The notes under the pieces are model-generated. The model saw nothing but the letters and a program-made list of their open reading frames with translations, was not told where the DNA came from and did not search any database. Positions 680-15,059 of a stretch of DNA of 24,902 bases are shown piece after piece. The translations under genes were made by a program, and so were the position numbers. The first letter of the stretch is position 1; every line of letters starts with the position of its first letter. Source of the stretch: Promethearchaeia archaeon (GTDB taxonomy: Archaea > Asgardarchaeota > Lokiarchaeia > Sigyniarchaeales > SOKP01); assembly GCA_029856105.1 (NCBI GenBank), contig JAHQWH010000161.1, forward strand, positions 1 to 24,902, given 5' to 3'.

Positions 680-1324
680 TTAGTTAAATTTTAGCCAGGC
701 TTCACAAGTTCTTAACGCACTAAATTTTTGTAGTTTTATGTTAGCCGAATCCACAGCATCTTGAGTAATAACATGTTTTTTGAATCCTGCTTTTTCGAGT
801 TCGTCTACTTTATAAGTAATTGTTGTTATGATTTTAGTTGACATTTTTTCCGTGTATTTTAAGCTTTTTTCTTTAAGGTTTTTATCGTTTACCTCTAAGG
901 ATTTTAATTCGTTAATGTATCCCTTTTTATCCAAGTTGTCAAGTTTATATTGGAGGAAATCCATAGCTTGCCTGCGCAAAAGAATGGCGTCGTAAATAAT
1001 CTGCTTATGATCTTTCGAATAAGCAGCAAGAAATATCCCATAAATAGTGATTCCTGCTATGACGAACGCTAAAATTTCCGCTATCAAGCTAAAAACCCAA
1101 ATTACTATAACAGCACCGTAAAGAATTGGAAAATAAGCAAAAATTACGATGAATAAGCTAATTATTAAAGCGAATTTTAGTAATGTATTTCTTTTTTTTT
1201 CAGTGATATCCCATAGGACTGTGTGTGTTGCTTCGGCATCAATAGAACGATTAAACGCCACTTTGATCTTCCCAACGGCAATTTCTTTTAGATCTTCCAA
1301 CTCGGTTGACTTATTTTCTACCAT
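680..1324 (-). CDS. Hypothetical membrane protein with two adjacent TM helices (possible SLATT-like 2TM domain)
   Basis: 214-aa ORF with hydrophobic segments at about aa 48-72 and 74-101, flanked by charged helical regions. Confidence 0.7.
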   Translation of the reverse strand: MVENKSTELEDLKEIAVGKIKVAFNRSIDAEATHTVLWDITEKKRNTLLKFALIISLFIVIFAYFPILYGAVIVIWVFSLIAEILAFVIAGITIYGIFLAAYSKDHKQIIYDAILLRRQAMDFLQYKLDNLDKKGYINELKSLEVNDKNLKEKSLKYTEKMSTKIITTITYKVDELEKAGFKKHVITQDAVDSANIKLQKFSALRTCEAWLKFN

Positions 1325-1697
1325 TATTATTACATCGTTTTACTCTTGTAGGATTTAAAATGATTAGAACTAATAAAGCTTTGTCTAATTATTCATAATT
1401 GGCTCTAATCGTTTGAATATAGAATTAATGTGATTTCTTAGTTTAATTTATTAACAATAGAGTTTTTATTCTTAAACCTATAAAGAACATTTCAACAGTA
1501 TTAACCATACTTTATCAAATTAAAATTGCATATGAAACAATTAGATTTAAATATGAAATATTTTACTCAATATCGTAAAAAAACTTAGCAAAAAATCGTT
1601 AACAAAAGTTGGCTATTAAATTGAAAATCTTATATGGATAATCTTTAAATGTGTTAAATATCGATGACCATACTTTGGATCAAATTTTAGCGTTATG

Positions 1698-2423
1698 TCA
1701 GTAGATTTTTGGTATTAATTTGTATTTTACTCGAGTTCGATATTCATCATAGCCGTCCATTCCCTTAATGAGCATTTCCTCCTCGAATTTTATTCGGATT
1801 ATTAAGCTTAATACTCCTACTGCAGCGGGAATTAATGATATCCACGATCCTAACGCAATGGGCATTCCAAGAATCATTAAAGCTGCCCCCGAGTAGAGAG
1901 GATGGCGAACGTGACTATATAATCCTGTATCAATGAGTTTTTGGTCTTTGTTTATATCCAGTAGTTTTAAGGCGTACGCATTTTGTACCATTGCGATATC
2001 AATGATTATTAGACCAATATTCGTAACTACAAGACTTATAATCTCCACCGTGAAAGGAATTGTAGACCAATGATAGCGGTAATCGAATACTGGTAATATT
2101 ATTGCACCAATAAATCCTATACTAATAAGCGGCATTATGAATAGATCTGATCTTGCAGATCTTTTTGTTTTTTCTGTGACGCCAACCTTTTTCACTTTCA
2201 TCCGGTTCCGAAGAACTCGCGGATTCTTCTTGTTTATGAGATAGAAACTGATTGTCATGTTAATAACAAATGATATGATGAATAATCAAGCTTCAATCCA
2301 TGACCAATCTTGAGTGAGGGGGAAAAATATGATTATGAATAAGACAGAAATGTATACTGGGGTGATAGCTATTGCCCAAAGAGGAAATGGTTTATCACTC
2401 TTATCATTTTCATTTTGTGGCAT
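1698..2423 (-). pseudogene. Isoprenylcysteine carboxyl methyltransferase (ICMT/Ste14/PEMT) family protein interrupted by an in-frame TGA
   Basis: C-terminal motifs LIDTGLYSHVRHPLYSG and RIKFEEEML..Y..Y. The frame extends upstream of the called ORF (1698-2258) to ATG 2423: MPQNEND...FFPLTQDWSWIEA*LFIISFVIN, with TGA at 2286-2288. Confidence 0.8.
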
Positions 2424-2585
2424 TTTATTTGAGATGGTTTTAATGAATGTTTATCAGAATTAAAAATTGATGAGGATAATTTTTAAATATGAAAATATTC
2501 CCATTTAAGAATATTCATCTTTTTATAGAATAATCATGGAAAATTTAATTCGTTTCATTTATATGATAAAAAAAATGAAAAAAAA

Positions 2586-3602
2586 ATGAATGATTGGAAA
2601 TCCTTGTTGAATGAGGACCCTATAGATTGGCTTTTAGAAGAAAATAATCCTTCAGTTCGATTTTTTGCTTTAACTGAAATTCTAAATAAACCTGAAGATA
2701 ATGCAGAGGTAATTTTGGCAAAAAAAGAGATCATGAAATCTGGACTTGTCCCAAAAATTCTTAGCAAACAAATAAATGGTGAATATTGGTTAAACCGTAA
2801 TAACTTTTACGTTAAAGCAAAATATAAAGGAACTGTGTGGAGTTTCATACTCTTAGCAGAACTTAATGCGGATGCAAATGATGAGCGAATCAAAAAGACC
2901 TGCGAATTTATTCTTAACAATTCGCAACATCGAGCAAGTGGTGGGTTTTCTGCTCGTGGTAGCGACGATAATGGTGGAACTTCTGAGCTAGTAATCCCAT
3001 GTTTAACAGGAAATATGATATGGGCTCTTATTAAGTTTGGACATTTGGAAGACTCAAGGGTTCAAAGTGGAATTGAATGGATTTTGAAATATCAACGATA
3101 TGATGATGGAATAGACAAGTCTCCAAGTGGCTGGCCATACGAGAGAAAGGAACAATGTTGGGGAAAACACACATGTCATATGGGAGTTGTAAAAAATCTA
3201 AAAGCACTTTCAGAAATTCCTCCTAATATTAGATCAAAAGAAGTTGAAGAGATAATTAATAGAACAGTAGATTATCTGCTCAATCACCGCATATACAAAA
3301 AAAGTCACGATCAGAATGTTATAGCTAAGCAGGAGTGGACTCAATTTGGTTTTCCATTAATGTGGAAAATTGATGCCTTGGAAGTTTTAGATATTTTAAC
3401 AAGGTTAGGATATAAAGACGATCGCATGCGCGACGCTTTCGATTTAGTTATATCTAAACAAGATAAGAATGGTCGATGGAAGTTAGAAAAATCATTTAAT
3501 GGACGAATGCAAGTAAGAGTCGAGCAGATAGGCAAAGAAAGCAAGTGGATCACATTGAACGCTTTAAAAGTGTTAAAAGGATATTATAATTTAACAAATT
3601 AA
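2586..3602 (+). CDS. Prenyltransferase/squalene-cyclase repeat (alpha/alpha toroid) fold protein of unknown function
   Basis: QW-like repeats (ILSKQINGEYW, ILKYQRYDDG, VISKQDKNGRW) plus PCLTGN, HTCHMGVVK and SKWITLNALKVL motifs typical of this widespread family. Confidence 0.75.
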   Translation: MNDWKSLLNEDPIDWLLEENNPSVRFFALTEILNKPEDNAEVILAKKEIMKSGLVPKILSKQINGEYWLNRNNFYVKAKYKGTVWSFILLAELNADANDERIKKTCEFILNNSQHRASGGFSARGSDDNGGTSELVIPCLTGNMIWALIKFGHLEDSRVQSGIEWILKYQRYDDGIDKSPSGWPYERKEQCWGKHTCHMGVVKNLKALSEIPPNIRSKEVEEIINRTVDYLLNHRIYKKSHDQNVIAKQEWTQFGFPLMWKIDALEVLDILTRLGYKDDRMRDAFDLVISKQDKNGRWKLEKSFNGRMQVRVEQIGKESKWITLNALKVLKGYYNLTN

Positions 3603-3632
3603 ATAAACTTCAAATTTGAGGAGAAATAAAAA

Positions 3633-4061
3633 ATGTACGAAAAAAATTTAGCAGCTCCATGTGGAATTTATTGTGGTGCTTGCCGGCAATATCTTCTTTG
3701 GAAAAAGGATTTGCTTGAAGAGAGGGGCTATAAAGTGGGCTGTAAGGGTTGCCGTATTAGAGATAAAAATTGTGCGTTTATAAGAAGAGATTGTTCTCTA
3801 TTGAAGAAAAAGGAAATTGAATTTTGTTTTGAATGTGAAGTTTTTCCTTGCGAAAAGTTAAAAAAAATTGATAATCATTATAAAGAGAAATATTTTGTGA
3901 ATATGATTAATAATCTAAAGAGAATTAAGGAAATTGGGGCTAAAAAATGGCTAAAAGAGCAAGAAGAGCTCTATACATGCCCTATTTGTAAGGGTGAAAT
4001 TTGCGTTCACGATGCGGAATGCTATGATTGTGGGAATAAAATTAATCCGAATATAAAATAA
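3633..4061 (+). CDS. DUF3795 Cys-rich protein
   Basis: Motifs APCGIYCGAC, CKGCR, C..RDC, FCFECEVFPC and C-terminal CPIC...CYDC. GAGGAG RBS upstream. Confidence 0.85.
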   Translation: MYEKNLAAPCGIYCGACRQYLLWKKDLLEERGYKVGCKGCRIRDKNCAFIRRDCSLLKKKEIEFCFECEVFPCEKLKKIDNHYKEKYFVNMINNLKRIKEIGAKKWLKEQEELYTCPICKGEICVHDAECYDCGNKINPNIK

Positions 4062-4074
4062 TAGGGAAAAAAAG

Positions 4075-4158
4075 ATGTCATATAAAGAATCTTACACGCA
4101 ACAATTAAGGGTAAACTTTCTTAAATACACGAGAGAGGCATTTAAATTGCTTCCAAAG
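4075..4158 (+). pseudogene. Truncated 5' gene fragment, possibly the N-terminus of a class I SAM methyltransferase
   Basis: MSYKESYTQQLRVNFLKYTREAFKLLPK starts just after DUF3795 and resembles, from memory, the segment preceding the ILDIGCG motif of a methyltransferase family. It joins abruptly to a uvrA fragment. Confidence 0.4.
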
Positions 4159-4159
4159 A

Positions 4160-4243
4160 ACACTTTATATTTTAGACGAAACAACTGTAGGATTATCTTT
4201 CTATGATGTTGAAAAATTAATGGGATTACTCGAAAGATTAGTC
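4160..4243 (+). pseudogene. uvrA: uvrA-like remnant 1 (Walker B region of the C-terminal ABC domain)
   Basis: Translation TLYILDETTVGLSFYDVEKLMGLLERLV matches the UvrA 'TLYILDEPTxGL...D..kL...L.rLV' segment. Confidence 0.75.
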
Positions 4244-4330
4244 CATCTTTCATTTTTTATAAACATGATTAGAATAGTAATAATGAGAGATGTTTACAAA
4301 AAAAAAAAATTAGTTTATATTTTGGAAGTT

Positions 4331-6352
4331 TTATTTTCTCTTAGATAATATTAATAGTACTATGCCTATAACGGCTAAAGAGCCTCCTCCAGCACCTAGA
4401 GCAATAAGTAGCGTATTTCCAAGATCGTATGGTTCCATCGGTAAGCTCAATTCCTCCTTTGCTAATGTATTTGTGATTTCATCCCTAAATTGTGCTAGCC
4501 AATCAAGAATTTGGATCATTTGCGCAGTAGAAAGACCACCATTAGCTGATTTTAAATCATTATAACTAGTACTGGATGATTCGGGGTTATACCACTTATT
4601 TATTCCAATTGCACTTACGAGTGAATAGTCGCTTGTCTCATCCCAGAGTGCATCGCATTGTAAAGCTGTTAGGCCTGTTGAGCCTTCTGTTAAGCCCACT
4701 TCGAAGTAGGGAGGTCCTAGTATAGGTGGATCAAGTTCACTTAAAAATCCATCAGGTAAAATACTTAGACCCTGAATAGTACCGTTTGCCCATTGTTCAT
4801 AGAATGCGAGTTGTGCTAGTTCTGGTATGGTATATCCTGTTTCATACTCAATAAGTTGTGGAACTCGTACTGTGAAAAAAGCACCCAACCAGACTAGAAG
4901 TGCTGTTAATTCACCAGTAGATATGCCAAAGGTTGCTATTAATGTACCTTGAAGAGTTGCGTTTGAAATTGCTCCAAGCCAGACTAAGATACCATCCATA
5001 TTGACAAAAGAGTAAGCATTCGCTTCATTCCATAAATTCATAGTTTCAATAAGTGAAAGTCCACTAGGACTTGGTAAGCCAACTTCGAAATATGGCACAC
5101 CTGCAAAGGCAGCACTAAGTTCACTTAAAAATCCATTAGGTAAAACGGCGGCCCCTTGTATTGTCCCATTAGCCCATTGTTCATAGAATGCGAGTTGTGC
5201 TAGTTCTGGTACGGTATACCCTGTTTCGTCAAAAAGCAAAAGTGGAACGAGATTAGTCATAAAATTCCCTAGCCAACCTAGTAGTATGGTTAATTGAGCT
5301 CCATTGAGACTAAATGCTCCGATTAACATACCTTGGAGGGTTCCATTTCCGTACATCGCACCAACCCATACTAAAATCCCACTATCGTTTACAAATGATA
5401 ATGGATTTGAATCATCCCAAAGATCCATACATATTGGTATCGTTAAGTTAGTGGGATTTGGAACGCCTGCTTCAAGACCTTTAGTATCTTCTGGTAGCGT
5501 ATCCTTGAAGAGACTTAAATCAATTCCATCTTCGGCAATCGTGCCATTAGCCCATTGTTCATAAAACATTAATTCGGCTACATATTCTATGGGCGCTGGG
5601 AAATAACTTCCTTTAACCACAACATCCCACAGATAATTTGCTATATAGCCCGCAAGAGCTTCAAGTTGATCCCAATTAGCATTGTAAAGAGATTGCATTG
5701 TTGCATTTAGCACTTGGTCGCCCAAAGTTACATTAACGTAGAGTTCCATATAACCCAGAAGATCAATCCCTAATTCAAGATCTGTAATTAACCCTGGTAA
5801 AGGACCTACGCCATACAGTAAATTATTTTGAGCAGTAACGGTATAACTAAGGTTTACCGTATCAGGGTCACCATAATACGTATCCCAATAGTCTGAAACC
5901 CCTTGGGGCGTGGTATACCCATAGTCTGCTTGAAATGTAGGGCTATTAAAGAATTGTTCCTTAGCAGCAGGATAACCAATGCCAAAAGCAATACCAGTTA
6001 TTGTTTGATTTATAGCTAAAGCTGCTCCTGTACCGTTGATTATCGCAGGTAATGCGTCTACTGCCTCTTCCTTAAGACCATCTAAGACGGCAGGAGTTGT
6101 AAGAACGGGCAGTTGTGTTTCTAAGGAAATAAGTGCTTCTGCTTCAACACCCAAAAGTACACTTGGTGTGCCTAAAGGTGGTAACTGTTCTTCTAACGAT
6201 GGAAGAGCTTCCTCTTCAATAGCTAAAAGGGCGTCAGGAACTCCTTCAGCAATTTGGTCGACGAGCATTTGGTTTACAAAAAATCCTGTTGGTATTAAAC
6301 CACCACCAACAACGATTAAAATTATTCCTATTATTAATTTAGATTTGGACAT
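4331..6352 (-). CDS. Membrane-anchored surface protein with N- and C-terminal TM helices and three internal ~127-aa repeats
   Basis: The repeat unit contains (L/A)FYEQWANGTI...(F/L)E(V/A)G...LW(D/N)E...S(F/L)V...GI..W. Many N-x-S/T sequons are present. Oligo-T on the minus strand at about 4297-4308. Confidence 0.85.
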   Translation of the reverse strand: MSKSKLIIGIILIVVGGGLIPTGFFVNQMLVDQIAEGVPDALLAIEEEALPSLEEQLPPLGTPSVLLGVEAEALISLETQLPVLTTPAVLDGLKEEAVDALPAIINGTGAALAINQTITGIAFGIGYPAAKEQFFNSPTFQADYGYTTPQGVSDYWDTYYGDPDTVNLSYTVTAQNNLLYGVGPLPGLITDLELGIDLLGYMELYVNVTLGDQVLNATMQSLYNANWDQLEALAGYIANYLWDVVVKGSYFPAPIEYVAELMFYEQWANGTIAEDGIDLSLFKDTLPEDTKGLEAGVPNPTNLTIPICMDLWDDSNPLSFVNDSGILVWVGAMYGNGTLQGMLIGAFSLNGAQLTILLGWLGNFMTNLVPLLLFDETGYTVPELAQLAFYEQWANGTIQGAAVLPNGFLSELSAAFAGVPYFEVGLPSPSGLSLIETMNLWNEANAYSFVNMDGILVWLGAISNATLQGTLIATFGISTGELTALLVWLGAFFTVRVPQLIEYETGYTIPELAQLAFYEQWANGTIQGLSILPDGFLSELDPPILGPPYFEVGLTEGSTGLTALQCDALWDETSDYSLVSAIGINKWYNPESSSTSYNDLKSANGGLSTAQMIQILDWLAQFRDEITNTLAKEELSLPMEPYDLGNTLLIALGAGGGSLAVIGIVLLILSKRK
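4788..5211. repeat. 40-bp identical intragenic direct repeat (4788-4827 and 5172-5211), with a shorter third copy near 5550
   Basis: gcccattgttcatagaatgcgagttgtgctagttctggta occurs twice, 384 bp apart. The third copy starts 378 bp further on. Confidence 0.9.
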
Positions 6353-6422
6353 AAATAATATTTTGTTAGTAGTATATTTAAAGTTATCACATATGGGTAA
6401 AAAATTGATCGAACCGAAGTAA

Positions 6423-6727
6423 CGAGTAAAACTTGCTAAAGAACTTGGAAGAGCTAGAAAAACGAAATCCTTGAATATTTTAGATGAACCTACAGTTGGA
6501 TGTCTTTTTATGATATCGTTAAATTAATGGAACTTCTAGATCAACTAGTTCGAGAAGGAAATTGTGTTCTAATTATAGAACATGATCCAGAAATTTTATC
6601 TTACATGGATTACATTATCGAATTAGATCCTGAAGGTGGTCTAAATGGAGGAAAAGTGATCAGAACAGAAACTCCGTAAGAGATAAAGGAAAATATAAAT
6701 TCTAAGACCGGCTCCTATTTATTATAG
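6423..6727 (+). pseudogene. uvrA: uvrA 3'-end remnant 2 (about 100 codons, one frameshift, one internal stop)
   Basis: RVKLAKELGRARKTKSLNILDEPTVG / 1-bp deletion at about 6501 / SFYDIVKLMELLDQLVREGNCVLIIEHDPEILSYMDYIIELDPEGGLNGGKVIRTETP*EIKENINSKTGSYLL*, which is the UvrA C-terminus. Internal TAA at 6677-6679. Confidence 0.92.
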
Positions 6728-6731
6728 ATAT

Positions 6732-7286
6732 TTATTTACTTTTTCTCAAATCTAACACTTCTACAGCACTTGAAGGATCTACAGGATCTACAGGATTATC
6801 TTGAAGATCCAAGTTCTTCAATTCATGCAGATTATCTAATCCCACGATCTCCGTTATTCTGTTAGACTGTAGATTTAGAGTCTGTAAATTTTTAAGATTA
6901 CTTAACCCCTTAATTTCGGTGATTTGATTGCGGCTAAGATTAAGCTCTCGTAGATTAGCCAGCTTCTCTAATCCTTGAATCTTGGTGATTTGATTGTGGC
7001 TAAGATCTAATTCCTGGAGATTAGTTAGTTTTTCTAAGCCAGAAATCTCTGTTATATTATTGTCAGACAAATTTAAATGAAACATTTTTGTAAGATTTTC
7101 AAGACCGCTAATTGCTGACAGTTCATTGCTTCTTAAATCTAAATCTTCTATATGCTTAAAACCATCAATATCTTGTATATTTCTTATATGAGCGCCCATC
7201 AAATCCAGATAGGCACCGATGATGTCTGAATACTCAACCTACACACGTTCTCCTTCAATTATAATGTAATCCTCGCGCTTCTGCAC
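6732..7286 (-). CDS. Leucine-rich repeat protein (SDS22-like 22-aa LRRs); probable 5' part disrupted by an in-frame TAG
   Basis: Repeats of LxxLxLSxNxITEIxGLExLxN. The called ORF is 6732-7202. The frame continues to GTG 7286 (VQKREDYIIIEGERV*VEYSDIIGAYLDL) with TAG at 7239-7241. Confidence 0.8.
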
Positions 7287-7417
7287 GATTTACTCACTTC
7301 TCATATTCTTGCTTAAAAGTTTTCTAATTATATAATCGAAATAACCCTATTTAAATACAAAGTATCTGCCGCATTAACTATAAACTAACATAGTAGTTAA
7401 AAACTACAAGTTTTTGA

Positions 7418-7543
7418 GTAGGCAAAAATTTGTCGTATCTGGTCACCAACAACACCGAACAAAAGACAAAGTTCGTGAAAGCTAAAGAACAAGGCATGAA
7501 AATCATCTTAGAAAAAGAGTTTCTCGCCATGATTAATGAGTAA
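7418..7543 (+). pseudogene. ligA: BRCT-domain C-terminal remnant, like the end of NAD-dependent DNA ligase
   Basis: Translation (*)VGKNLSYLVTNNTEQKTKFVKAKEQGMKIILEKEFLAMINE* matches the LigA/RFC-type BRCT tail 'SVsKk..yLV.....sK..KA...G..Ii.E.eFl.m'. There is no start codon. Confidence 0.7.
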
Positions 7544-7560
7544 TAATAACTTAAAATCGA

Positions 7561-7684
7561 TTTATCACAATCTTGCAATTTTAGCTTAGGCAGCCTTTAA
7601 GAGGCGTTTTAGACGTATATGCCTTCTTTAATGAGCTCCCCTTCAGGAAGGTGTGTCCACTAATTGCGTCACCATTGTGACAAA
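7561..7684. other. Locally GC-enriched, multi-stem element bounded by inverted repeats (candidate ncRNA or MITE)
   Basis: Nested pairings: tttatcacaat 7561-7571 / attgtgacaaa 7674-7684; gcaatt 7575-7580 / aattgc 7662-7667; agct 7583-7586 / agct 7634-7637; aggca 7588-7592 / tgcct 7620-7624; gcct 7593-7596 / aggc 7602-7605; cctt 7640-7643 / aagg 7648-7651. Confidence 0.45.
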
Positions 7685-7905
7685 GATTTAAATATTAGTT
7701 TTATTTTTATCATAATAACAAACTCAAAAAAGTTTGAAGGGATTTAATAAACAACTCGAGAGATACGTAATATTAGATAGTTTTAGACAATCTTCAACAA
7801 AGAAATTATTTACTTAGCCGAGGTATTATTAAGGTCCCTAAAAAAATAATCGTAATAAAAGATATGAAAAAAGGTGGGGTTTAAATTTCAGTTAATGGGG
7901 ATTTT

Positions 7906-9024
7906 TTGAAGCCAGTTGTTTTAGATAATGGTACGGGAATATCTAAGAATGGATATGCTGGAGAAGACCAACCTCGTTCTGTTTTTCCAACTGTAATTGG
8001 CGAACCAAAGTATGGGGTCGTTTTACCAGATGTAAGGCATTATTCACGAGATTTTTACATAGGTGAAGAAGCTATGCAATTAAAAGGTCTGATGCGATTA
8101 ATGTTTCCTATTGAACATGGAATTGTTGAGGACTGGCCCGCTATGGAGAAGATTTGGCATTACACTTTCTATACTGATCTTAGAATTGATCCTTCTGAGC
8201 ATCCTGTATTATTAACGGAGGCGCCCTTAAATCCTAGAATGAATCGAGAAAAAATAGCGGAAATTATGTTTGAGACTTTTAATGTTCCTGCACTTTACAT
8301 TGCAACTCAAGCTATTTTATCGCTTTACGCTTCTGGGAGAACTACGGGCTGTGTAATAGACATTGGGGATGGAGTGTCTCATATCGTACCGATTTTTGAA
8401 GGTTTTGCTTTAAGTCACGCAATTCAGAGAGTTGATCTTGCTGGTCGAGATATAACGAATTATTTGCAGAGATTATTAAGGCAAAAGGGATATTCCTTTA
8501 CATCTTCGGCAGAAAAAGAAATAGTAAGAGACATTAAGGAGAAGCTATGCTATGTAGCCACTGATCCAGAAAAAGAAATGATTCTCTCGAAGAAAGTTTC
8601 TGGAATGGAAAAAAGTTTTATGTTACCCGATGGAGAGGTTATTAATGTAGGAATTGAAAGATTTTTAGCCCCAGAAAGCTTTTTTAATCCATCGGTATTA
8701 GGAAAAGAATTAGATCCTTTAGATAATATCCTTGTAGATGCCATTTCTGAATGTGATGTTGACCTAAGGCGAGATCTTTATAGTAACATAGTTCTCTCAG
8801 GAGGGTCTACTATGTTTTCTGGCATTAAAGAGCGTTTAACAAAAGAAATAAAAGAATTGGTTCCAGAATCGATCGATGTAAGAATACTTTCACCTCCAGA
8901 AAGAATGTATTCTGTTTGGATTGGTGGTTCAATATTAAGTTCTCTGAAAACATTTCATAGAATGTGGATAACGCGCCGTGAATACAAAGAAATTGGACCA
9001 GGAGTAATCCATCGATGTTTTTAA
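7906..9024 (+). CDS. Asgard archaeal actin (eukaryotic-type actin homologue)
   Basis: Actin hallmarks in order: [156 protein letters not shown]-terminal HRCF. Confidence 0.98.
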
Positions 9025-9045
9025 ACTTTTAAAAATTAATTAAAA

Positions 9046-9057
9046 TTTTTTTTTTTT
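9046..9057 (+). terminator. Oligo-T (T12) archaeal terminator candidate after actin
   Basis: Twelve consecutive T starting 22 bp downstream of the actin stop. Confidence 0.55.
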
Positions 9058-9063
9058 ATAATA

Positions 9064-9095
9064 TTTAAACAAATAAATGAACAAGTAAGGGGTGG
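9064..9095 (+). promoter_or_regulatory. TATA-like box (TTTAAA 9064-9069) and RBS (GGGGTGG 9089-9095) upstream of the profilin-TrmB gene
   Basis: Position and spacing relative to ATG 9106 fit archaeal signals, but the AT-rich background limits certainty. Confidence 0.4.
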
Positions 9096-9105
9096 TAATA
9101 AAATA

Positions 9106-10347
9106 ATGGAAAAATACGTATCTGTTCTTGATAAATATATAAAATCCGACTCTAAAATAATATCAACAGCTATTATTGAAGATGAAAATAAGATTGTATA
9201 TTCGTCAGATAATTGGGATATTAGTAACGATATAGAAAACATAAACACGATTTGGCGAAATTTAGATGAAAGATATATTACTATTTCTGGAATTAAGTAT
9301 ATGATTCTTCAAATTTCTACTGAGAGGCTTGTTGCTAGTAATATAGATAAGAAGGGAAGCGTTATTGGGTTTAAAGAAGAAGAAAGAAAAATTATTTGTA
9401 AAATTGAACCTGAAGGACAGATTCATCTAGGAATAATGGAAGCATCAAGAACTTTGGGAAAACTTAGGTCTAAAAAACCTTATTTAGAACCTGATACGCC
9501 TTTAGGAAAGGTTGAGGAAATAAAGTGGGCTACTCCCAAAGTTTTGCTTGATGAAACCCAAAATTTGCAAAGATTAGGCTTATTAAAAGCAGGTTTAAGC
9601 TTAGAAGAGGCTAAAGTTTATTTAGCTTTGTTGAAAAAAGGAGAGAAAGGAGATAAAATTGGAAATATAAATAAAGAACTGGAAATAAAAAGAACTACGA
9701 TATATCGAATAATTGATCGTTTAGTTAAAAATTATTGGGTAGAAAAGGTATCGAGAACTCCAAGTGGCATACAAATATATGTTGCAAGGCCACTAAATGC
9801 TTTAATCGATGAGATTATTCGAGATAAAGAGGAGGAATTAAATATATTAAAAAGTTTTCGGTATGTAATGGGTGAGGATCTTGAAAATGGATGGATAGAT
9901 ATTGTTGAAGCTAAAAAAGACTTTCATGCATATGACGAAAAATCATACGATTTTAACACGCTTGGAATAAGAGGTGTAGATAAAGATTGCGGTCTTATAA
10001 TTTTAGAATACGATAGAGCTATAGAGAATAAGATTGTGATTCGGGCAGCTTTACAATTATCGTACGAGAAAATTTGGAATAGTTTACAACCAGATAAAGG
10101 AAATAAAGAATATATTATTCAAGATTTAGAAGATATCAAAGTTGAAGACATTGTAATCCAAGATTACTTGGGAGCCATCATGTATTTAAAATTTAAAGCT
10201 GGAAGCGATGCGGCTAAGAACGTTGGAAGTAGTTGGATTACTCTTGCTAAACACGTCGCGATTCCTATTGACGATAAAATCTACGTCATCTGGGGCACAG
10301 AAGAGAAATTTCCAATTCTTTTGAGCATGATATTGAAACTCAAGTAA
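9106..10347 (+). CDS. Profilin-like domain + TrmB-type winged HTH + C-terminal alpha/beta domain fusion (putative transcriptional regulator)
   Basis: aa 1-122 match Asgard profilin motifs (AII...IVYSSDNWDISND, ITISGIKYMILQISTERLVASN...GSVIG, C-terminal helix). aa 159-250 match the TrmB N-terminal wHTH (LLKAGLSLEEAKVYLALLKKG...INKELEIKRTTIYRIIDRLVKNYWVE......YVARPL followed by a coiled helix). Confidence 0.85.
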   Translation: MEKYVSVLDKYIKSDSKIISTAIIEDENKIVYSSDNWDISNDIENINTIWRNLDERYITISGIKYMILQISTERLVASNIDKKGSVIGFKEEERKIICKIEPEGQIHLGIMEASRTLGKLRSKKPYLEPDTPLGKVEEIKWATPKVLLDETQNLQRLGLLKAGLSLEEAKVYLALLKKGEKGDKIGNINKELEIKRTTIYRIIDRLVKNYWVEKVSRTPSGIQIYVARPLNALIDEIIRDKEEELNILKSFRYVMGEDLENGWIDIVEAKKDFHAYDEKSYDFNTLGIRGVDKDCGLIILEYDRAIENKIVIRAALQLSYEKIWNSLQPDKGNKEYIIQDLEDIKVEDIVIQDYLGAIMYLKFKAGSDAAKNVGSSWITLAKHVAIPIDDKIYVIWGTEEKFPILLSMILKLK

Positions 10348-10349
10348 AT

Positions 10350-10520
10350 CTACATTATTTCTTCTCTTATTTTGTTATAAAAGTCTACAATTATTTTACT
10401 TCTCTCTTCTGCGATTTGCTTAGAGACTTCTAAGTACAATCCATCCTTTAATTTTAAAATTTTTTTTTCCAAATGGTTAATTACTTGTTCGATGCCCCCT
10501 TTATTTCTAATGGTAAATCC
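10350..10520 (-). pseudogene. Orphan duplicate of the 3' end of the HD-hydrolase gene (displaced gene end)
   Basis: GFTIRNKGGIEQVINHLEKKILKLKDGLYLEVSKQIAEERSKIIVDFYNKIREEIM*. By manual alignment, 33 of 48 residues are identical to the C-terminus of ORF 14469-15059. Confidence 0.9.
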
Positions 10521-10526
10521 ATAGTC

Positions 10527-12965
10527 TTATAAAATTTCTTTTCCAAAAAAATACTTATTTTGTTTCATCTTCAGCTGATATTCTACGTAATTATTTTCCC
10601 AAATATCAATTAAATCTCTGAATCTTTTCGGAAAATCATTTAATTTTTGATTAATCAATTCTCTTGCTTTTTCCTTACCTTTAGGAGTAATATGATAAAT
10701 TCTTTGAAAATTCTCAACAACTTGTATATAATCAATATGAATTAATTTATGTTTAAAATTCCTAAATGAACGCGCCTTATTAATAATAAAATTCAACTCA
10801 CCAGAAGTAAAGAAAGGATTCTCTTTATCTTTTGAAAAAACTTCACAAATATAGTAAATACAGATTAAATTTCTCTTTAAACCGTCTCCCTTTTCAAAAA
10901 TTAACTGTAACGGATTTGGAATTTGAATCAAATGATTTTCAATTTTTTTTTTAAAAATTAAGATTCTATTTTTTAATTTACTTATCTGTTTGTCTAATTG
11001 ACTATAATAATTCCTTACAAATATCTCATCGGTTTTACTTTCCAAGATAGTAAGAGCATAATCTCGAAAATTTACAGCATGAAGCATTTGATGACAATTT
11101 ATACAAATAAAAACACATTCTTGAATAATTATATTTTCAATTAACCAATCAATATCCTTTTTTTTATATTCTTTACCAAATTCTATTTTTTCAAGATCAT
11201 CTCTAAAAATATCTTCATTAGTATGATGAGCAACAAAACAATTGAGGTGTTCATTAATATTAGCTTTTCGACAAATAGGACAAACATAATCATTTCCAAA
11301 TAGAAACTGAATACTATATTTTTTTTTAACGAATGCTAAAGTCGATTTTCTAATACCATCTTTTATCATTGTTTTTTGTTGAGCTTGAGTGTAATTTTTC
11401 GACATTTTAGTTTTTTCTTTTTTTTGGTTGTAATATATGCTTACTAATGACTTCAATTTGATTAAAACATCTGATGGATTTTCATTGATATTTTCTAAGG
11501 ATAGTTTCTGAAGAAATGTAAAAATCGGAGAAAAATTATATATTACATGATGTTTAGAAAAATGGCAATTCAGACATGCTAAACCTAATCCACCAATTTG
11601 AGTCTGCATTAATTTAATAGCTCTCTCAAATTTTAAGTTTAGAATAGTATGAGGAAGGATATATTTAAATTCTTTTCTTGTTATGAGTTTTTTGTAATTT
11701 TTGAGTAGATGGTGATGGGAGAGAGCAGGTAAGAATCTGTAATCAACATTGAATTGACAAGTTCCATTATTTCCTTGACATATTCCATTGTAATGAATAT
11801 CTATTTTCATCTGTAAATCTTTTTTCAAATAAGTAATTGTAATATCATCAACTAATTTATACAAATTCCTAAAATTCCTAATCGATACTTGAGCAGATTT
11901 TTGGAATGTATCATGATGACATGATCTAATATTAAAATCAAGATTTTGTCTTAAATACTGAATAATCTTCGTTGAAAAAACCACCCAAGATTTTAAGGAA
12001 ACTATATTTTTATCATGAGTTTCTTTTGCTACTTCAGTAATATTTATTTTTTGTTTGGTCTCATTTAATAATTTTATTTTTATAAGAAGCTTAACGATAA
12101 GTTGAATATAATTCTTAATATATTGTCTAAAATCGGCATCAGCTTGAATTCTATTGTCTAAACTCGGAATCTTTTTGATTTCTATTTGTCTGAAAACAGA
12201 ATCTCTTATAGAAACTATATTTTCTAAAATTTCCTTTTCTACTAAATTGTAAATAGTGATTTGTCTTAATTCAACTAAAACATATTGTGCAATTTTTTCT
12301 CTTAATTCTTCAGGAATATAAGTATTAGGTCTTAATTCTGGAAAACAGAAAGGGCAAGCTATTTTTGGTTCTTTTCTTCTTTTTATATTCTTGTATATAT
12401 CTTTAAATTCTTTATTGCATTCCTTACATCTAAAAATTATTTTATTTTCATCAGATTTGTATGTAGTGAGCATTTTAGCATTGTTTTCTTCAGCTATTTT
12501 TTTTAAATCATTCTTGATTTCTTCTATTGAACGAATAACAATGTTATTTTCTGAGGACATTAATTCTTTATTATATTCTTTATATCGCTGTTCTAATCTG
12601 AGTGTTAAATCATTAAAAAGATTAGAAAATTCTTGTATTTTTGACTCAATAATTTCCGCTGCAAAATCTGCGCCTTGTTTTGTAATTGTATAAATTTGTA
12701 CAAAGCTATGTTTTTTTTTAGAAATTGTTCCGCAGTATTGAACAAAATTTTCGTCTAACAGTTCCCTTCTAATATTATTAAAAAAAAATTCAGATCTGCT
12801 AAGAATCTTACTTAATTCCTTTCCAGAAAAAAATAACTTATCAATTTCATTCTTTTTTGGAAATATATCACAAATATAATATATCGTTAAAATTCCTAAT
12901 TGTAGAGATTCCCCGAACTTAAAAATTTTGCCTAGAAGTTCTTCTTGAGTATATTTAACTGTCAT
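10527..12965 (-). CDS. Large protein: wHTH - Zn ribbon - two HNH-like Zn-binding domains - wHTH (putative endonuclease)
   Basis: Duplicated IYYIC(D/E)(I/V)F...FF(S/T)..EL..I...IY.IT..G motif at both ends; FRCKEC...CPFC; GICQG...C...ALSHHH...ACLNCHFSKH and VCPIC...FVAHH...ICINCHQMLH. Confidence 0.75.
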   Translation of the reverse strand: MTVKYTQEELLGKIFKFGESLQLGILTIYYICDIFPKKNEIDKLFFSGKELSKILSRSEFFFNNIRRELLDENFVQYCGTISKKKHSFVQIYTITKQGADFAAEIIESKIQEFSNLFNDLTLRLEQRYKEYNKELMSSENNIVIRSIEEIKNDLKKIAEENNAKMLTTYKSDENKIIFRCKECNKEFKDIYKNIKRRKEPKIACPFCFPELRPNTYIPEELREKIAQYVLVELRQITIYNLVEKEILENIVSIRDSVFRQIEIKKIPSLDNRIQADADFRQYIKNYIQLIVKLLIKIKLLNETKQKINITEVAKETHDKNIVSLKSWVVFSTKIIQYLRQNLDFNIRSCHHDTFQKSAQVSIRNFRNLYKLVDDITITYLKKDLQMKIDIHYNGICQGNNGTCQFNVDYRFLPALSHHHLLKNYKKLITRKEFKYILPHTILNLKFERAIKLMQTQIGGLGLACLNCHFSKHHVIYNFSPIFTFLQKLSLENINENPSDVLIKLKSLVSIYYNQKKEKTKMSKNYTQAQQKTMIKDGIRKSTLAFVKKKYSIQFLFGNDYVCPICRKANINEHLNCFVAHHTNEDIFRDDLEKIEFGKEYKKKDIDWLIENIIIQECVFICINCHQMLHAVNFRDYALTILESKTDEIFVRNYYSQLDKQISKLKNRILIFKKKIENHLIQIPNPLQLIFEKGDGLKRNLICIYYICEVFSKDKENPFFTSGELNFIINKARSFRNFKHKLIHIDYIQVVENFQRIYHITPKGKEKARELINQKLNDFPKRFRDLIDIWENNYVEYQLKMKQNKYFFGKEIL

Positions 12966-13093
12966 GATACTTTTAGGTTTTTGATTTTGAAAGGGAATTT
13001 TATATTTTGTCTCATCAAGTATATCAATATTATCTTGATAAGTGAACTTAGCTTTTACTAAATCACAGATTGCGGATTTTGTAAATTTTCCAG

Positions 13094-13714
13094 TTAATTG
13101 CGCTTTAATATGGTCTTTTGATAATCCTTCAAATAATTTCGGAGGTTTTTAGAAAGTGATTTAAGCGTTTGATGATCAATGAGAATCTCGGAATGTGCTC
13201 TCAGGTGCTTGAGAATCCTCGTATATTGAATAGTAATTTCATCCATTCCATCCTTAATCGTCTTATTCACGAGATTTGGTTTTGAATCATCTCCCTTTTT
13301 AAGTGCCTTAATTTGTTTCTTGGTTAATTGCTTGAGATACGCATTCGAAATCGTATCCATATAACGTGAAATAATGGACACTCCCCTTCCAGCCGTGATG
13401 CAATACACCCATCCTTCTACAAACGAGGTAACTTCATTATGAAATTTTGATTTTACACCCTCGAGTAATTCACTTGGGGGGAGTCCTGCTTTATCAAACA
13501 AGCATGCTAGGGCAGCATCCACGAAATCACCGATTCTTTCATCAACATATACTAAAGGAATGTGATGTTTCTTGCATTTAGGATGCTTCCCAAAACCTAA
13601 GAACCTAAATTTAAGAGGCTTAACTCGTGTCATGTACTCGCATCCAAAATTAGGGCAGATTGCTACTCGATCCTCTCCTACGGTTTTCCGTGATACATTT
13701 GTGTATGCTTTCAT
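13094..13714 (-). CDS. Hypothetical protein with an N-terminal Cys/His Zn-finger-like motif; may be the 5' part of the 812-aa gene
   Basis: CPNFGC...PKCKKH motif. The start overlaps the upstream stop (ATGA). Confidence 0.7.
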   Translation of the reverse strand: MKAYTNVSRKTVGEDRVAICPNFGCEYMTRVKPLKFRFLGFGKHPKCKKHHIPLVYVDERIGDFVDAALACLFDKAGLPPSELLEGVKSKFHNEVTSFVEGWVYCITAGRGVSIISRYMDTISNAYLKQLTKKQIKALKKGDDSKPNLVNKTIKDGMDEITIQYTRILKHLRAHSEILIDHQTLKSLSKNLRNYLKDYQKTILKRN

Positions 13715-14322
13715 GAAGTTAATCTCTCCTCAAGTTGCTTTTTTAATTTTTGCTTCTTAATTGGCGTGATTTCGATTAAATCTTCAAGTTCTTCTTCTAA
13801 ATTGTTGTAATTTATTTCAAGTTCCCCATAAAATTCACTAAATTGCGCATTCAAGCATTTTTTCACTAAACAAAGGTGTTGTGCTAATATTACGCTAAAT
13901 TTGAGAAATTTAGGATGAGTGTAAAGGCTTTCTTCTGAAAAATAGTGAAGTAGCATGGATAATTTCTCAGTTATTTCTGAGAGTTTATTCAATGGTGTTT
14001 TATTATTGTCAAAAAAGAGAGATCGAATCCCTTCCTCAAGTGTTTTGGTGGGTTTTTTTAACTTCTTCAGCATGGTTATGAATTCACGAGTTAATGATTC
14101 AATTTCTTGCTTTTGACTGAAAAATTTAGTGTTTGTGTCATTTTCGGCAAGATGTGGACTGGGTCGAAATCGATATCTTATTACTTCAGCCTTATAATTA
14201 AAAAAAGTTCGGAGTTGGCGTGAAAGTTCTTTTATTTTTCTTGCACCCTCAATTTCATACCATTCATTAAAAATATCATCGTATTCAGATCCCATATAAG
14301 GATCTTCAATATAGTCTGTCAT
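13711..14322 (-). CDS. Hypothetical helical protein, first gene of the cassette
   Basis: 203-aa ORF translationally coupled to the next gene by a 4-bp overlap. Confidence 0.7.
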   Translation of the reverse strand: MTDYIEDPYMGSEYDDIFNEWYEIEGARKIKELSRQLRTFFNYKAEVIRYRFRPSPHLAENDTNTKFFSQKQEIESLTREFITMLKKLKKPTKTLEEGIRSLFFDNNKTPLNKLSEITEKLSMLLHYFSEESLYTHPKFLKFSVILAQHLCLVKKCLNAQFSEFYGELEINYNNLEEELEDLIEITPIKKQKLKKQLEERLTS

Positions 14323-14468
14323 AATTTATTTTCATAATTCTTTTACTACCTAATTATGATAGTTATATTTAAAGAACAAAATAAACAAAAAAGGCTTATG
14401 TCCGAATACAGGACTTGAAAGGAAAGAAAAATGAAGGTGGTTTTCAAAAAAGTACAAAAATTTAGATA

Positions 14469-15059
14469 TTACACTTCCTTTTTTATTTTATAATAAAAAT
14501 CTAAGATAATTTTCTGTCTTTCTTTTGCTATTTCTTTTGAAATGTCTAAATACATTCGATCTTTTAATTTTATTATTTTTTTTTCTAAATGTTCAATTAC
14601 TTTCTCTATTCCACCATTTTTCAATTTAAATGAATATATAATAGTTCTGTATAAACCTATTGCTCCAAGCGCGTCGAGTTTATCTGCGTCCGATAAAATT
14701 TTAGCTTCAAGAGTTTTAGGTTTTATTTTATTAGAAAAAGAATGCGCTCGAATACTGTGAAGAATATTTTCAATATCGTCAATACTAATGTTGAAGTTAG
14801 TTTTTTGGAAAAATTTTTCAGCCATTTCAGCGGAAATTTCAGCGTGATTCTTTGCATCATTATTTTCCTCATGAATTCTACCAACATCGTGAAGTAAGGC
14901 AGCTATTTTAATTGTCAATAAATTCGCATTTAAAGCAGTTCCTATTTGCACACATAAATTGAGTACTCGCTCAACGTGTTTAAAACCGTGGAGATCGTCA
15001 TTTTCAGAATTATTAAATGCGAAAGTTCTTACAGCTGAAAGTATTTCGTCGTCATTCAT
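14469..15059 (-). CDS. HD-domain metal-dependent phosphohydrolase (YedJ-like)
   Basis: Motifs HGFKHVERV, AALLHDVGR, HAEISA, IRAHSFS, EAKILSDADKLDALGAIG. Confidence 0.93.
   Translation of the reverse strand: MNDDEILSAVRTFAFNNSENDDLHGFKHVERVLNLCVQIGTALNANLLTIKIAALLHDVGRIHEENNDAKNHAEISAEMAEKFFQKTNFNISIDDIENILHSIRAHSFSNKIKPKTLEAKILSDADKLDALGAIGLYRTIIYSFKLKNGGIEKVIEHLEKKIIKLKDRMYLDISKEIAKERQKIILDFYYKIKKEV

Follow-up and report, generated by a model that had tools for sequence, protein, structure and literature searches.

The locus analyzed here lies in the window, a 24,902-nucleotide stretch of DNA from a Promethearchaeia archaeon, and is best read as a compact, self-contained regulatory cassette consisting of a putative operator, a second actin gene, an optional 65-aa gene, and a profilin-TrmB regulator. 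The earlier note had described an actin gene followed after 81 bp, on the same strand, by a 413-aa ORF, and both reading frames are present at the positions it gave, the regulator occupying 9106-10347 of the plus strand. From the N to the C terminus, the regulator is composed of a profilin fold, a TrmB winged helix with a coiled coil, and an unclassified C-terminal domain (Table 1). A one-component circuit, in which profilin-bound monomeric actin would switch a winged-helix factor on the promoter of the second actin, is possible but far from assured. Neither a profilin-TrmB fusion, nor a second-Lokiactin cassette, nor an Asgard analogue of MRTF was found in the searchable literature, which took in few subscription papers. 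The only extensions dealt with in a published survey of 256 Asgard profilins are N-terminal and ≤25 residues long.

Table 1. Features of the cassette and their coordinates in the window.
Feature	Position	Strand	Remarks
Putative operator	7653..7683	+	three GT(C/G)AC-type units (7654-7659, 7666-7671, 7677-7682), ~11 bp apart
TATA box TTTAAATA, cassette promoter	7687..7694	+	putative function, from archaeal promoter layout (PMC4158304)
Shine-Dalgarno-like site, actin gene	7872..7877	+	spacing to start codon conserved in homologues
Cassette Lokiactin, second paralogue	7885..9024	+	PF00022; probably 379 aa from ATT (372 aa from TTG 7906)
T-run (12 T) after actin stop	9046..9057	+	candidate archaeal terminator or attenuator
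Profilin domain, aa 1-124	9106..9477	+	without Loki-loop; descends from the extended profilins of the lineage
Conserved tail and linker, aa 125-157	9478..9576	+	Tyr126 contacts actin in the complex model
TrmB-type winged helix (aa 158-228) and dimerization-type helix (aa 230-255)	9577..9870	+	PF01978
C-terminal alpha/beta domain, aa 293-413	9982..10347	+	no named family; model pLDDT 88

The pairing of fusion and actin suggested by the earlier note was borne out by a survey of related genomes. The fusion occurs at 46 loci in 45 of the 135 genomes of one Lokiarchaeia family, and actin lies immediately upstream at 45 of these loci, which are spread over four genera. The single 413-aa reading frame is conserved across 164 clusters. 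Two single-contig genomes of the class, 4.4 and 6.0 Mb in size, gave no match. In a different study, sediment sequenced in 2019 yielded an independent contig of 3,938 bp that covers 6434-10371 without a gap, so the locus is not an assembly chimera, a possibility that the earlier note had named. Fusions without a neighboring or intact actin exist (G049, G111, G156, P0131, and P0150), and the fusion has decayed in G103, G126, and G078. The optional 65-aa gene lies between actin and fusion, and T-runs similar to the one in Table 1 are found in most of the short actin-to-fusion spacers. A broad distribution in the Asgard archaea was considered and rejected after a search of 301 genomes of the phylum (see below); the Hod-, Odin-, Thor-, and Hermodarchaeota source labels on some homologues are doubtful.

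Sequence and structure comparisons agree with the earlier claim that the N-terminal domain is a profilin. Residues 2-120 match the Odin, Loki-2, Loki-1, and Thor profilins (5zza, 5zzb, 5yed, and 7pbh) with E 1e-9 to 1e-5, and a family profile matches the characterized profilins with E 8e-14 compared to 1e-9 for the single sequence. The score against Pfam Profilin (PF00235) was 17.1, below the gathering cut-off of 25 bits. The canonical profilin of the genome (22.4) also fails, which places the shortfall in the Pfam model. The AlphaFold model of aa 1-124 gave a Foldseek match to 5yed (E 7e-9) and a profilin VIA Z of 18.3 (rmsd 2.0-2.2 Å over 118-123 residues), compared to 11.5 for the best roadblock domain; ten profilins outrank every roadblock in this comparison. 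The profilin fold is a sheet of seven strands flanked by terminal helices. The mean identity of the fused profilin is 33% to the 202-aa extended profilin subfamily and 25% to the canonical profilins. The profilin tree (FastTree, 125 columns) supports coarse grouping only. The origin of the fusion is shown by sequence and structure: a profilin-plus-linker from the extended profilin of the lineage was grafted onto an existing TrmB/C-terminal-domain regulator. The same module also heads an LCM-type methyltransferase and a protein with an unknown domain.

The selection acting on the fused profilin was compared to that on its neighbors and relatives. The dN/dS of the domain is 0.22-0.24, which indicates purifying selection, versus 0.10-0.12 for the winged helix and C-terminal domain, and it is 2-3 times as high as in the free profilins (0.07-0.13; 4-5 pairs each). 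The predicted actin face has a modal frequency of 0.50 compared to 0.59 for the rest of the domain, and the same face scores 0.87 in canonical and 0.75 in extended free profilins; the actin surface opposite it is almost invariant. Tyr126 does not vary across the 64 aligned homologues or the extended profilins, Gln69 is near-invariant, and both sit in the modeled actin interface. The best-conserved profilin patch (Trp50, Gly88-Arg94, and Lys99) lies mostly off that interface, and Lys99 of the fusions stands against an invariant Tyr in both free profilin families. K60 and K71 of Loki profilin are predicted to bind PIP2 (PMC8410842). The K71 equivalent is Leu75 in the fusion, and the K60 equivalent, Lys64 here, is Glu in 21 of the 64 homologues, findings that weaken the earlier idea of a phosphoinositide signal.

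The complex model with actin, a test proposed in the earlier note, docks the profilin domain on the actin barbed end with a score of 0.79 compared to 0.01 for the best of three controls. At least 92% of contacts recur between runs, and the partner pLDDT is at least 85. Of 80 solved complexes, 58 attain the docking mark, compared to 2 of 110 mismatched pairs. Profilin-actin complexes have already been solved (5zza, 5zzb, and 5yee), so the model may simply be reproducing them. The expected docking at the profilin site was thus obtained, but like complexes are solved and the face is not selectively conserved; the model shows a likeness to profilin-actin complexes, not binding. The profilin-contact residues of the cassette actin, which the earlier note had taken as support for the interaction, have no evidence value because the main actin carries them as well.

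The winged helix named in the earlier note is a TrmB domain: residues 161-227 match PF01978 with E 7e-11, above the cut-off. The modeled structure aligns with TrmBL2 (5bpd) with Z 11.9 and rmsd 3.2 Å over 107 residues. The recognition-helix residues are invariant among homologues, and Tyr200 aligns by eye with the DNA-contacting Tyr50 of TrmB. A winged helix followed by a long dimerization helix is the TrmB layout (PMC4158304). Six other TrmB-family genes in the genome score above the cut-off. The 120-aa C-terminal domain, which the earlier note did not mention, is as well conserved as the winged helix and is shared with profilin-less TrmB paralogues (34% identity). We did not detect a Pfam match, an Atlas feature match, or a Foldseek match at E 0.001 for this domain. 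Its best VIA Z is 5.9 (rmsd 4.2 Å over 97 residues), a weak Mog1p/PsbP-like resemblance, and only its own family is clear in the Atlas shape search. Across 301 genomes of the phylum, the domain was found in the family of the window plus one profilin-less match. The sugar-binding effector domain of TrmB/TrmBL1 gave no Pfam match and is not among the fold-search matches of the isolated C-terminal domain. The true effector site may lie in this C-terminal domain.

The cassette promoter carries an inverted-repeat site at the BRE/TATA region that is cassette-specific and is the predicted target of the regulator. In most relatives, it is a TGTCAC-N6-GTGACA palindrome with or without extra units, which resembles the TrmBL1 motif TATCAC-N5-GTGATA (PMC4158304). 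The last unit overlaps the BRE position, and the TATA box lies 3-4 nt past it in nearly all loci. A weight matrix built without the site of the window and its three closest relatives ranks this site first in the 3.66 Mb genome (21.8 bits; runner-up 15.3). The strict pattern is present in 37 of 45 fusion genomes versus somewhere in 6 of 90 fusion-less genomes, and a second pattern detects the site at 41 of 44 loci; of the three misses, one is deleted, one falls at a contig end, and one differs by a single base. The site was not found upstream of any of the 38 other actin genes examined. It is missing where the fusion has decayed, and a degenerate copy precedes an orphan fusion without actin (L160), which ties the operator to the regulator rather than to actin. 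A similar site precedes the own gene of one profilin-less TrmB/C-terminal-domain paralogue (L132). The first stretch earlier proposed for EMSA begins a little downstream of the site, which falls within 7650-7700, and binding of the regulator to the site is likely. The earlier idea that the fusion regulates the neighboring actin gene gains a promoter site, but the target would be a spare actin; the main Lokiactin promoter lacks the site.

Two other readings of the site were rejected. A generic BRE was discarded since the right unit plus TATA is no commoner outside the cassette than a reversed control; G152 is an exception, with ~27 copies in one repeated element resembling an IS200/IS605 end. 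Left of 7674, the site of the window departs in sequence from its three closest relatives. Breakage by an insertion (IS end) was discarded since the genome holds no second copy of the putative end, the three-unit variant is seen in other members of the genus, and the site still has the top score. Upstream DNA has evidently been exchanged.

The cassette actin matches PF00022 (E 4e-128) and has the actin fold; its phosphate loops are intact, and its identity to Lokiactin is high. The earlier note was correct that an actin is encoded here, but the start is probably upstream of the one it used, and the gene is a spare copy rather than the main Lokiactin. The frame is open from ATT 7885 behind the Shine-Dalgarno site, and homologues have ATG, TTG, or ATT at the equivalent position followed by the same N-terminal residues (of 43 loci, 21 have ATT and 8 have TTG or ATG). 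Translation therefore probably begins at 7885 rather than 7906 to give a protein of 379 aa. The main Lokiactin is on another contig of the same genome and is 85% identical. The mean identity to Lokiactin is 84%, with the phosphate loops and profilin face almost unchanged and most changes at the filament contacts of the D-loop and subdomain 4. In a quick tree that left out two broken actins, the cassette actins form their own clade of 42 sequences apart from the main actins (SH-aLRT 99). Their dN/dS is 0.039 versus 0.010, about four times higher, and identity among copies is 84% versus 99% among main copies. The cassette actin is thus a separate, patchy, and faster-evolving clade, not a near-invariant universal main copy. 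The tree largely tracks genus, which suggests vertical descent with losses.

These features suggest a mechanism. Most likely, the fusion would bind the 11-bp-spaced cassette site through its winged helices, as a dimer or small array, and would control the cassette promoter only. With less certainty, the modeled profilin domain would bind monomeric actin at the barbed end, and either paralogue could be the ligand because their profilin faces are nearly identical. Actin binding may then change promoter occupancy or activity, a step held with similar caution, so that a shortage of free actin would turn on production of spare actin and an abundance would stop it. We lean toward an activator disabled by G-actin because TrmBL1 and Tgr activate from sites upstream of the TATA box, where the array lies. 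The alternative, a repressor for which G-actin is the co-repressor, has not quite an even chance; it is allowed because TrmB represses malE from the BRE, which the last unit overlaps. Both versions would be negative feedback. The whole explanation, an operator-binding regulator with an actin-sensing profilin, is our tentative choice at somewhat under even odds, and actin-controlled transcription of the cassette is plausible but less likely than not. Points against the explanation are the variable predicted actin face, the fusions that persist without a neighboring or intact actin, the possible effector role of the C-terminal domain, and the six other TrmB-family genes of the genome.

The fusion could instead be an ordinary local TrmB-type regulator with a repurposed or vestigial profilin that senses another ligand or partner, with actin merely the regulated gene. 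The relaxed actin face, the fusion-specific conserved patch that includes Lys99 off the interface, and the profilin-less paralogues, one with a similar site of its own (L132), are consistent with this reading. However, the profilin domain is kept in all full-length cassette members and is under purifying selection, Gln69 and Tyr126 are retained, and docking is confident apart from the caveat of the solved complexes. This reading would also leave unexplained why an actin-binding fold sits next to an actin gene at nearly every locus if it does not bind actin. Its candidate inputs are a small molecule acting through the C-terminal domain or the 65-aa neighbor, but that gene is missing from about half of the loci and was lost in the genome of the window. 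We consider this reading somewhat unlikely. Sensing may also be uncoupled from transcription: the profilin would bind actin and the winged helix the promoter, making the fusion an autoregulated chaperone or sequestering factor that keeps a divergent actin monomeric or stops it from poisoning the main filaments. The concentration of actin differences in filament contacts fits this purpose, the module on unrelated proteins may be a portable actin-targeting tag, and the linker has pLDDT <50 at 131-148. Against it, no part of the protein is under stronger constraint than linker aa 135-157 (dN/dS 0.09), which is what a coupling element should show. Moreover, regulators are rarely abundant enough to sequester actin in bulk, and three free profilins are already encoded in the genome. 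These data make an uncoupled fusion unlikely.

A type II partition-like tether following ParMRC logic, with autorepression as a side effect, is improbable. The order and anatomy recall parC-parM-parR, with tandem repeats upstream and an adaptor that both represses the promoter and engages the barbed-end pocket of the actin-like motor (PMC5016525), and there is one site per genome with presence in only 45 of 135 genomes. But the cassette has 2-4 units (~35 bp) compared to ten repeats at R1 parC, and it lies on contigs up to 1.05 and 1.28 Mb beside recurring chromosomal neighbors (uvrA / HD-hydrolase), although the flanks are fluid. The suggested vertical descent and the weak ATT start, which suggests low actin output, also argue against a tether. 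Moreover, profilins bind actin monomers rather than filament ends. The probability is negligible that the adjacency is due to chance, that the assembly produced the locus as an artefact, or that a roadblock/GAF-like domain was mistaken for a profilin; the sub-threshold Pfam score is the sole point in favor, and conserved synteny, the independent spanning contig, and the fold ranking refute these readings.

Asgard profilins have so far been known only as free actin regulators. The cassette supplies candidates for the sensor and the operator, together with a target gene. If the actin-sensing circuit is correct, the fusion would be the first example outside eukaryotes of a transcription factor that senses actin, independent of MRTF-SRF, and profilin would be a portable actin-sensing module with several uses in Lokiarchaeia. 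Cytoskeletal feedback on transcription would then have arisen in a prokaryote that has no nucleus. Even without coupling, the locus presents a duplicated Lokiactin, so far undescribed, that has a regulator of its own, and it is a case of profilin reused as a fusion module. Its confinement to one Lokiarchaeia family points to a parallel invention with little direct bearing on the eukaryotic ancestor.

In the eukaryotic circuit of G-actin, MRTF with its RPEL motifs, and SRF, monomeric actin controls a factor that controls the actin gene. The proposed cassette logic is alike, and to that extent the MRTF-SRF likeness drawn in the earlier note holds. The parts are not homologous (profilin versus RPEL, winged helix versus MADS box), there is one component and no nucleus, and RPEL motifs and a MADS box gave no Pfam match in the fusion at E up to 1. 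The likeness is convergent at best, since the cassette is a lineage-restricted innovation. [quoted passage not shown] Those of known structure (5yed/5yee, 5zzb, 5zza, 7pbh, and 6yrr; PMC8410842) share with the fused domain the fold (Z 18.3), 25-28% identity, the NW motif, the beta-4/beta-5 strands, and the modeled barbed-end face. They are small single proteins, whereas the fused copy heads a DNA-binding protein, lacks the Loki-loop, and has a more variable actin face. TrmB, TrmBL1, and Tgr of Thermococcales (PMC4158304) share the winged helix, the long dimerization helix, a TCAC-spacer-GTGA site at BRE/TATA, and autoregulation, which is probable in the fusion. The fusion differs in its N-terminal profilin, a C-terminal domain with no Pfam or fold match to the sugar-binding effector domain, the 6-nt spacer and 11-bp arrays of its site, and a target of one actin promoter instead of a sugar regulon. 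Lokiactin (PMC9834061) resembles the cassette actin in overall identity, phosphate loops, and profilin face; the cassette copy is set apart by its second-copy clade, its D-loop and subdomain 4 changes, and its frequent ATT start. ParMRC and AlpAC (PMC5016525, PMC5539076) have the same order of repeat site, actin-family gene, and DNA-binding adaptor, a likeness of layout only, and their barbed-end binding and autoregulation correspond to what is modeled or proposed for the cassette. They use ParM and a ribbon-helix-helix protein with a peptide tail, whereas the cassette has a Lokiactin paralogue, a profilin/winged-helix regulator, few repeats, and a probably chromosomal location.

The window contains an actin gene (PF00022, E 4e-128) and, 81 bp beyond its end on the same strand, a 413-aa ORF, as an earlier note had described. 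The first 120 residues of this fusion match Odin, Loki, and Thor profilins by single-sequence comparison (E 1e-9 to 1e-5) and by profile (E 8e-14), and residues 161–227 match a TrmB winged helix over the Pfam cut-off; both of the note's domain assignments hold. The AlphaFold model, built with 64 homologues, has three folded units. Ten profilins top the structural ranking for residues 1–124 (Z 18.3, rmsd ~2 Å) and roadblocks fall below them (Z ≤11.5), which answers the note's caveat of a roadblock fold. Residues 151–262 resemble TrmBL2 (Z 11.9). Residues 293–413 form a confidently modelled α/β domain that is at most weakly Mog1p/PsbP-like, and structural searches with the model gave it no assignable fold. 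By domain content, the fusion is a TrmB-family regulator plus a profilin. An assembly chimera, another of the note's caveats, is ruled out by a contig from a separate study that spans the locus without gaps; runs X6 and X7 in this check appear to be a single data set. The spanning contig differs from the window at ~50 places, those listed being mostly in the fusion gene and one in actin, a possible allele exchange of the regulator.

Coordinates of features in the window and in other stretches (L handles; G, genome; C, contig)
Feature	Coordinates	Sequence	Basis
Putative operator, three-unit variant	7653-7683	window	pattern and weight matrix
Probable ATT start of cassette actin	7885-7887	window	
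Profilin-TrmB fusion	9106-10347 (+)	window	
Span of separate-study contig	6434-10371	window	
Stretch of contig differences	9228-10005	window	
Upstream replacement	6661-7673	window	
LRR gene	6732-7202	window	
BRCT-like fragment	near 7420-7540	window	
Replacement junction, inside operator	7674	window	
3' insert	10356-14470	window	
812-aa Cys/His-rich protein	10527-12965	window	
uvrA remnants	4160-4246; 6423-6721	window	
673-aa membrane-anchored protein	4331-6352 (-)	window	
Tandem main-type actins	2650-6490	L084 (G104:C48)	
~65-aa gene (example)	2236-2442	L163	
Profilin-less TrmB paralogue	2329-3165 (-)	L132 (G048)	
Extended profilin, 202 aa	1294-1902 (-)	L002	
Extended profilin, 210 aa	1501-2133 (+)	L003	
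LCM-type fusion	1293-2615 (-)	L147	
LCM-type fusion	1656-2978 (-)	L148	
LCM-type fusion	1950-3212 (-)	L149	
255–281-aa profilin fusion	1948-2790 (+)	L142	

Homologues of the fusion fall into 164 clusters, many of them labelled Promethearchaeota. A count over 161 genomes of the class gives 46 fusion loci in 45 genomes, all from four genera of the window's family. Actin lies directly upstream at 45 of the 46 loci; the sole exception is in genome G049. About half of the loci (22, e.g. L039-L044) carry between the two a conserved ~65-aa gene encoding an N-terminal hairpin-like motif and a C-terminal amphipathic helix; it is missing from the window locus and was not found elsewhere in that genome. 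Five very divergent metagenomic members have actin in two cases and lack it in three. Two genomes (G111, G156) retain the fusion next to a broken actin, and three with a fusion remnant only have neither cassette actin nor promoter site. The surroundings vary. An insert of ~4 kb 3' of the window fusion, between a partial and a full HD-hydrolase gene, holds the 812-aa protein and 206- and 203-aa ORFs; in close relatives the HD gene directly follows the fusion. Several genomes have an intact uvrA upstream of the cassette. The 673-aa protein (internal repeats of ~128 aa, 384-nt spacing) has no Pfam family and is also found near the cassette in other genomes.

The window actin is a second Lokiactin copy. 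Its genome has five actin-family genes, and the main Lokiactin, on another contig, is 85% identical to it. A quick tree places 42 cassette actins and 37 others on opposite sides of one branch (SH-aLRT 99). Identity is 84% within cassette actins and 99% within main actins, and dN/dS is 0.039 and 0.010, respectively. The differences lie mostly in the D-loop and subdomain 4, with almost no change in the phosphate loops and profilin face. The retained profilin-contact residues, cited earlier as evidence, count for nothing here, since the main actin has them as well. The cassette actin probably starts at a non-canonical ATT, since the open reading frame extends back to it, a Shine-Dalgarno lies ahead, and homologues have ATT (21), TTG (4), or ATG (4) at the same codon. 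The ATT is shared by 21 of 43 loci in two genera and may limit translation. Elsewhere, L084 has two main-type actins in tandem, the second diverged, with neither fusion nor operator.

A GTGACA unit lies 3–4 nt ahead of the TATA box in 41 of 44 cassette actin promoters. It is usually the right arm of TGTCAC-N6-GTGACA, often with further units added in 11-bp steps. In the other three, the promoter has a deletion, runs into a contig end, or carries a one-base variant. The site precedes none of the 38 other actin genes examined. Across 135 genomes, the strict pattern finds the cassette in 37 of the 45 that have the fusion and matches anywhere in 6 of the 90 that lack it; the latter matches are no commoner than with a reversed control, and one of them is a complete palindrome at the end of a contig. 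The window site ranks first in its genome by weight matrix (21.8 versus 15.3 bits for the next); the matrix left out this site, its three closest relatives, and the TATA box, and is anchored on the right unit, so the ranking is partly built in. One orphan fusion, which has no actin, carries a degenerate array ahead of its own gene; this links the site to the regulator. The site's core is similar to the TrmBL1 motif. TrmBL1/Tgr activate from sites upstream of TATA, and TrmB represses malE through a site on BRE/TATA (PMC4158304). The window site fits both placements, so activation and repression are both possible. Upstream, ~1 kb holding the LRR gene and BRCT-like fragment replaces the DNA of three relatives whose actin is 98–99% identical. 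Genome G152, which also has the fusion, carries ~27 copies of one end of a repeated element (L119-L127, L136-L138); this end looks IS200/IS605-like by eye and contains the right operator unit and TATA box.

In the window's family, an extended profilin of 202 aa is near-universal, alongside a canonical profilin of 135 aa. The fused domain is nearer the extended type (33% versus 25% identity) and shares its tail with an invariant Tyr126. TrmB proteins that have the same C-terminal domain but no profilin also occur, often only a few kilobases away from the cassette. The simplest history would graft a profilin-plus-linker module onto such a regulator. One such paralogue (L132), 2.3 kb downstream of a cassette, has a short palindrome and TATA box of its own. 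The extended profilins in L002 and L003, from one genome, have a C-terminal helical module; the 202-aa form occurs in 54 of 61 genomes, near a TFB gene. The profilin-plus-linker module also heads a leucine carboxyl methyltransferase-type (LCM-type) domain (PF04072, E 3e-31; 421–441 aa; with one genome from another family among the carriers), a candidate actin-directed methyltransferase. Another profilin fusion (255–281 aa; L142-L146), with a C-terminal part of no recognised kind, is restricted to genus g11 among the matches seen.

Modelling and sequence change bear differently on actin binding. The profilin domain–actin model scored 0.79 and the best control 0.01; of solved complexes, 58 of 80 reach the score mark, as do 2 of 110 mismatched pairs. 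Separate runs share at least 92% of contacts, and partner pLDDT is ≥85. The interface is the canonical barbed-end site, including Tyr126, present in all 64 homologues, and Gln69, present in 60 of them. Because like profilin–actin complexes are already solved, the model indicates likeness rather than binding. Conservation is 0.50 on the modelled actin face versus 0.59 in the rest of the domain; the same face reaches 0.87 in canonical and 0.75 in extended profilins, samples biased to close relatives. Within the fusion, dN/dS is 0.22 on the face, 0.24 elsewhere in the profilin, and 0.09–0.12 for the linker, winged helix, and C-terminal domain; free profilins give 0.07–0.13 from only 4–5 pairs each. 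These distance-corrected rates agree with the low face conservation, and both argue against tight actin binding. By these sequence measures the fused domain is maintained but relaxed. We lean toward actin binding by this domain; its having been repurposed is an appreciable, less probable reading. The case for phosphoinositide binding, proposed earlier, is weaker again: of two predicted PIP2 lysines, Leu replaces one, and Glu often stands at the other position in homologues.

The fusion very probably binds the cassette promoter, with the second actin and its own gene as its sole targets. It would sit on this promoter, and actin bound by the profilin domain would change that control. Given both activities, their coupling is rather likely. 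Combining these three judgments leaves the full actin-sensing circuit doubtful as a whole. Even so, no other single reading explains as well why one operator is found together with an actin gene and an actin-binding fold. Real but uncoupled actin and promoter binding is unlikely. Less likely again is a tether like that of ParMRC, which has the same gene order and the same logic of an adaptor at the barbed end (PMC5016525); however, the cassette site has few repeats, the cassette lies on megabase contigs with recurring chromosomal neighbours, and the actin tree is structured by genus.

The searchable literature yielded no account of the fusion, the second actin, or the promoter site, and a survey of the C-terminal domain confines the fusion type to the window's family. 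The fusion is neither a member of the MRTF-SRF system nor a canonical sugar-sensing TrmB. Its restriction to one family points to parallel invention.
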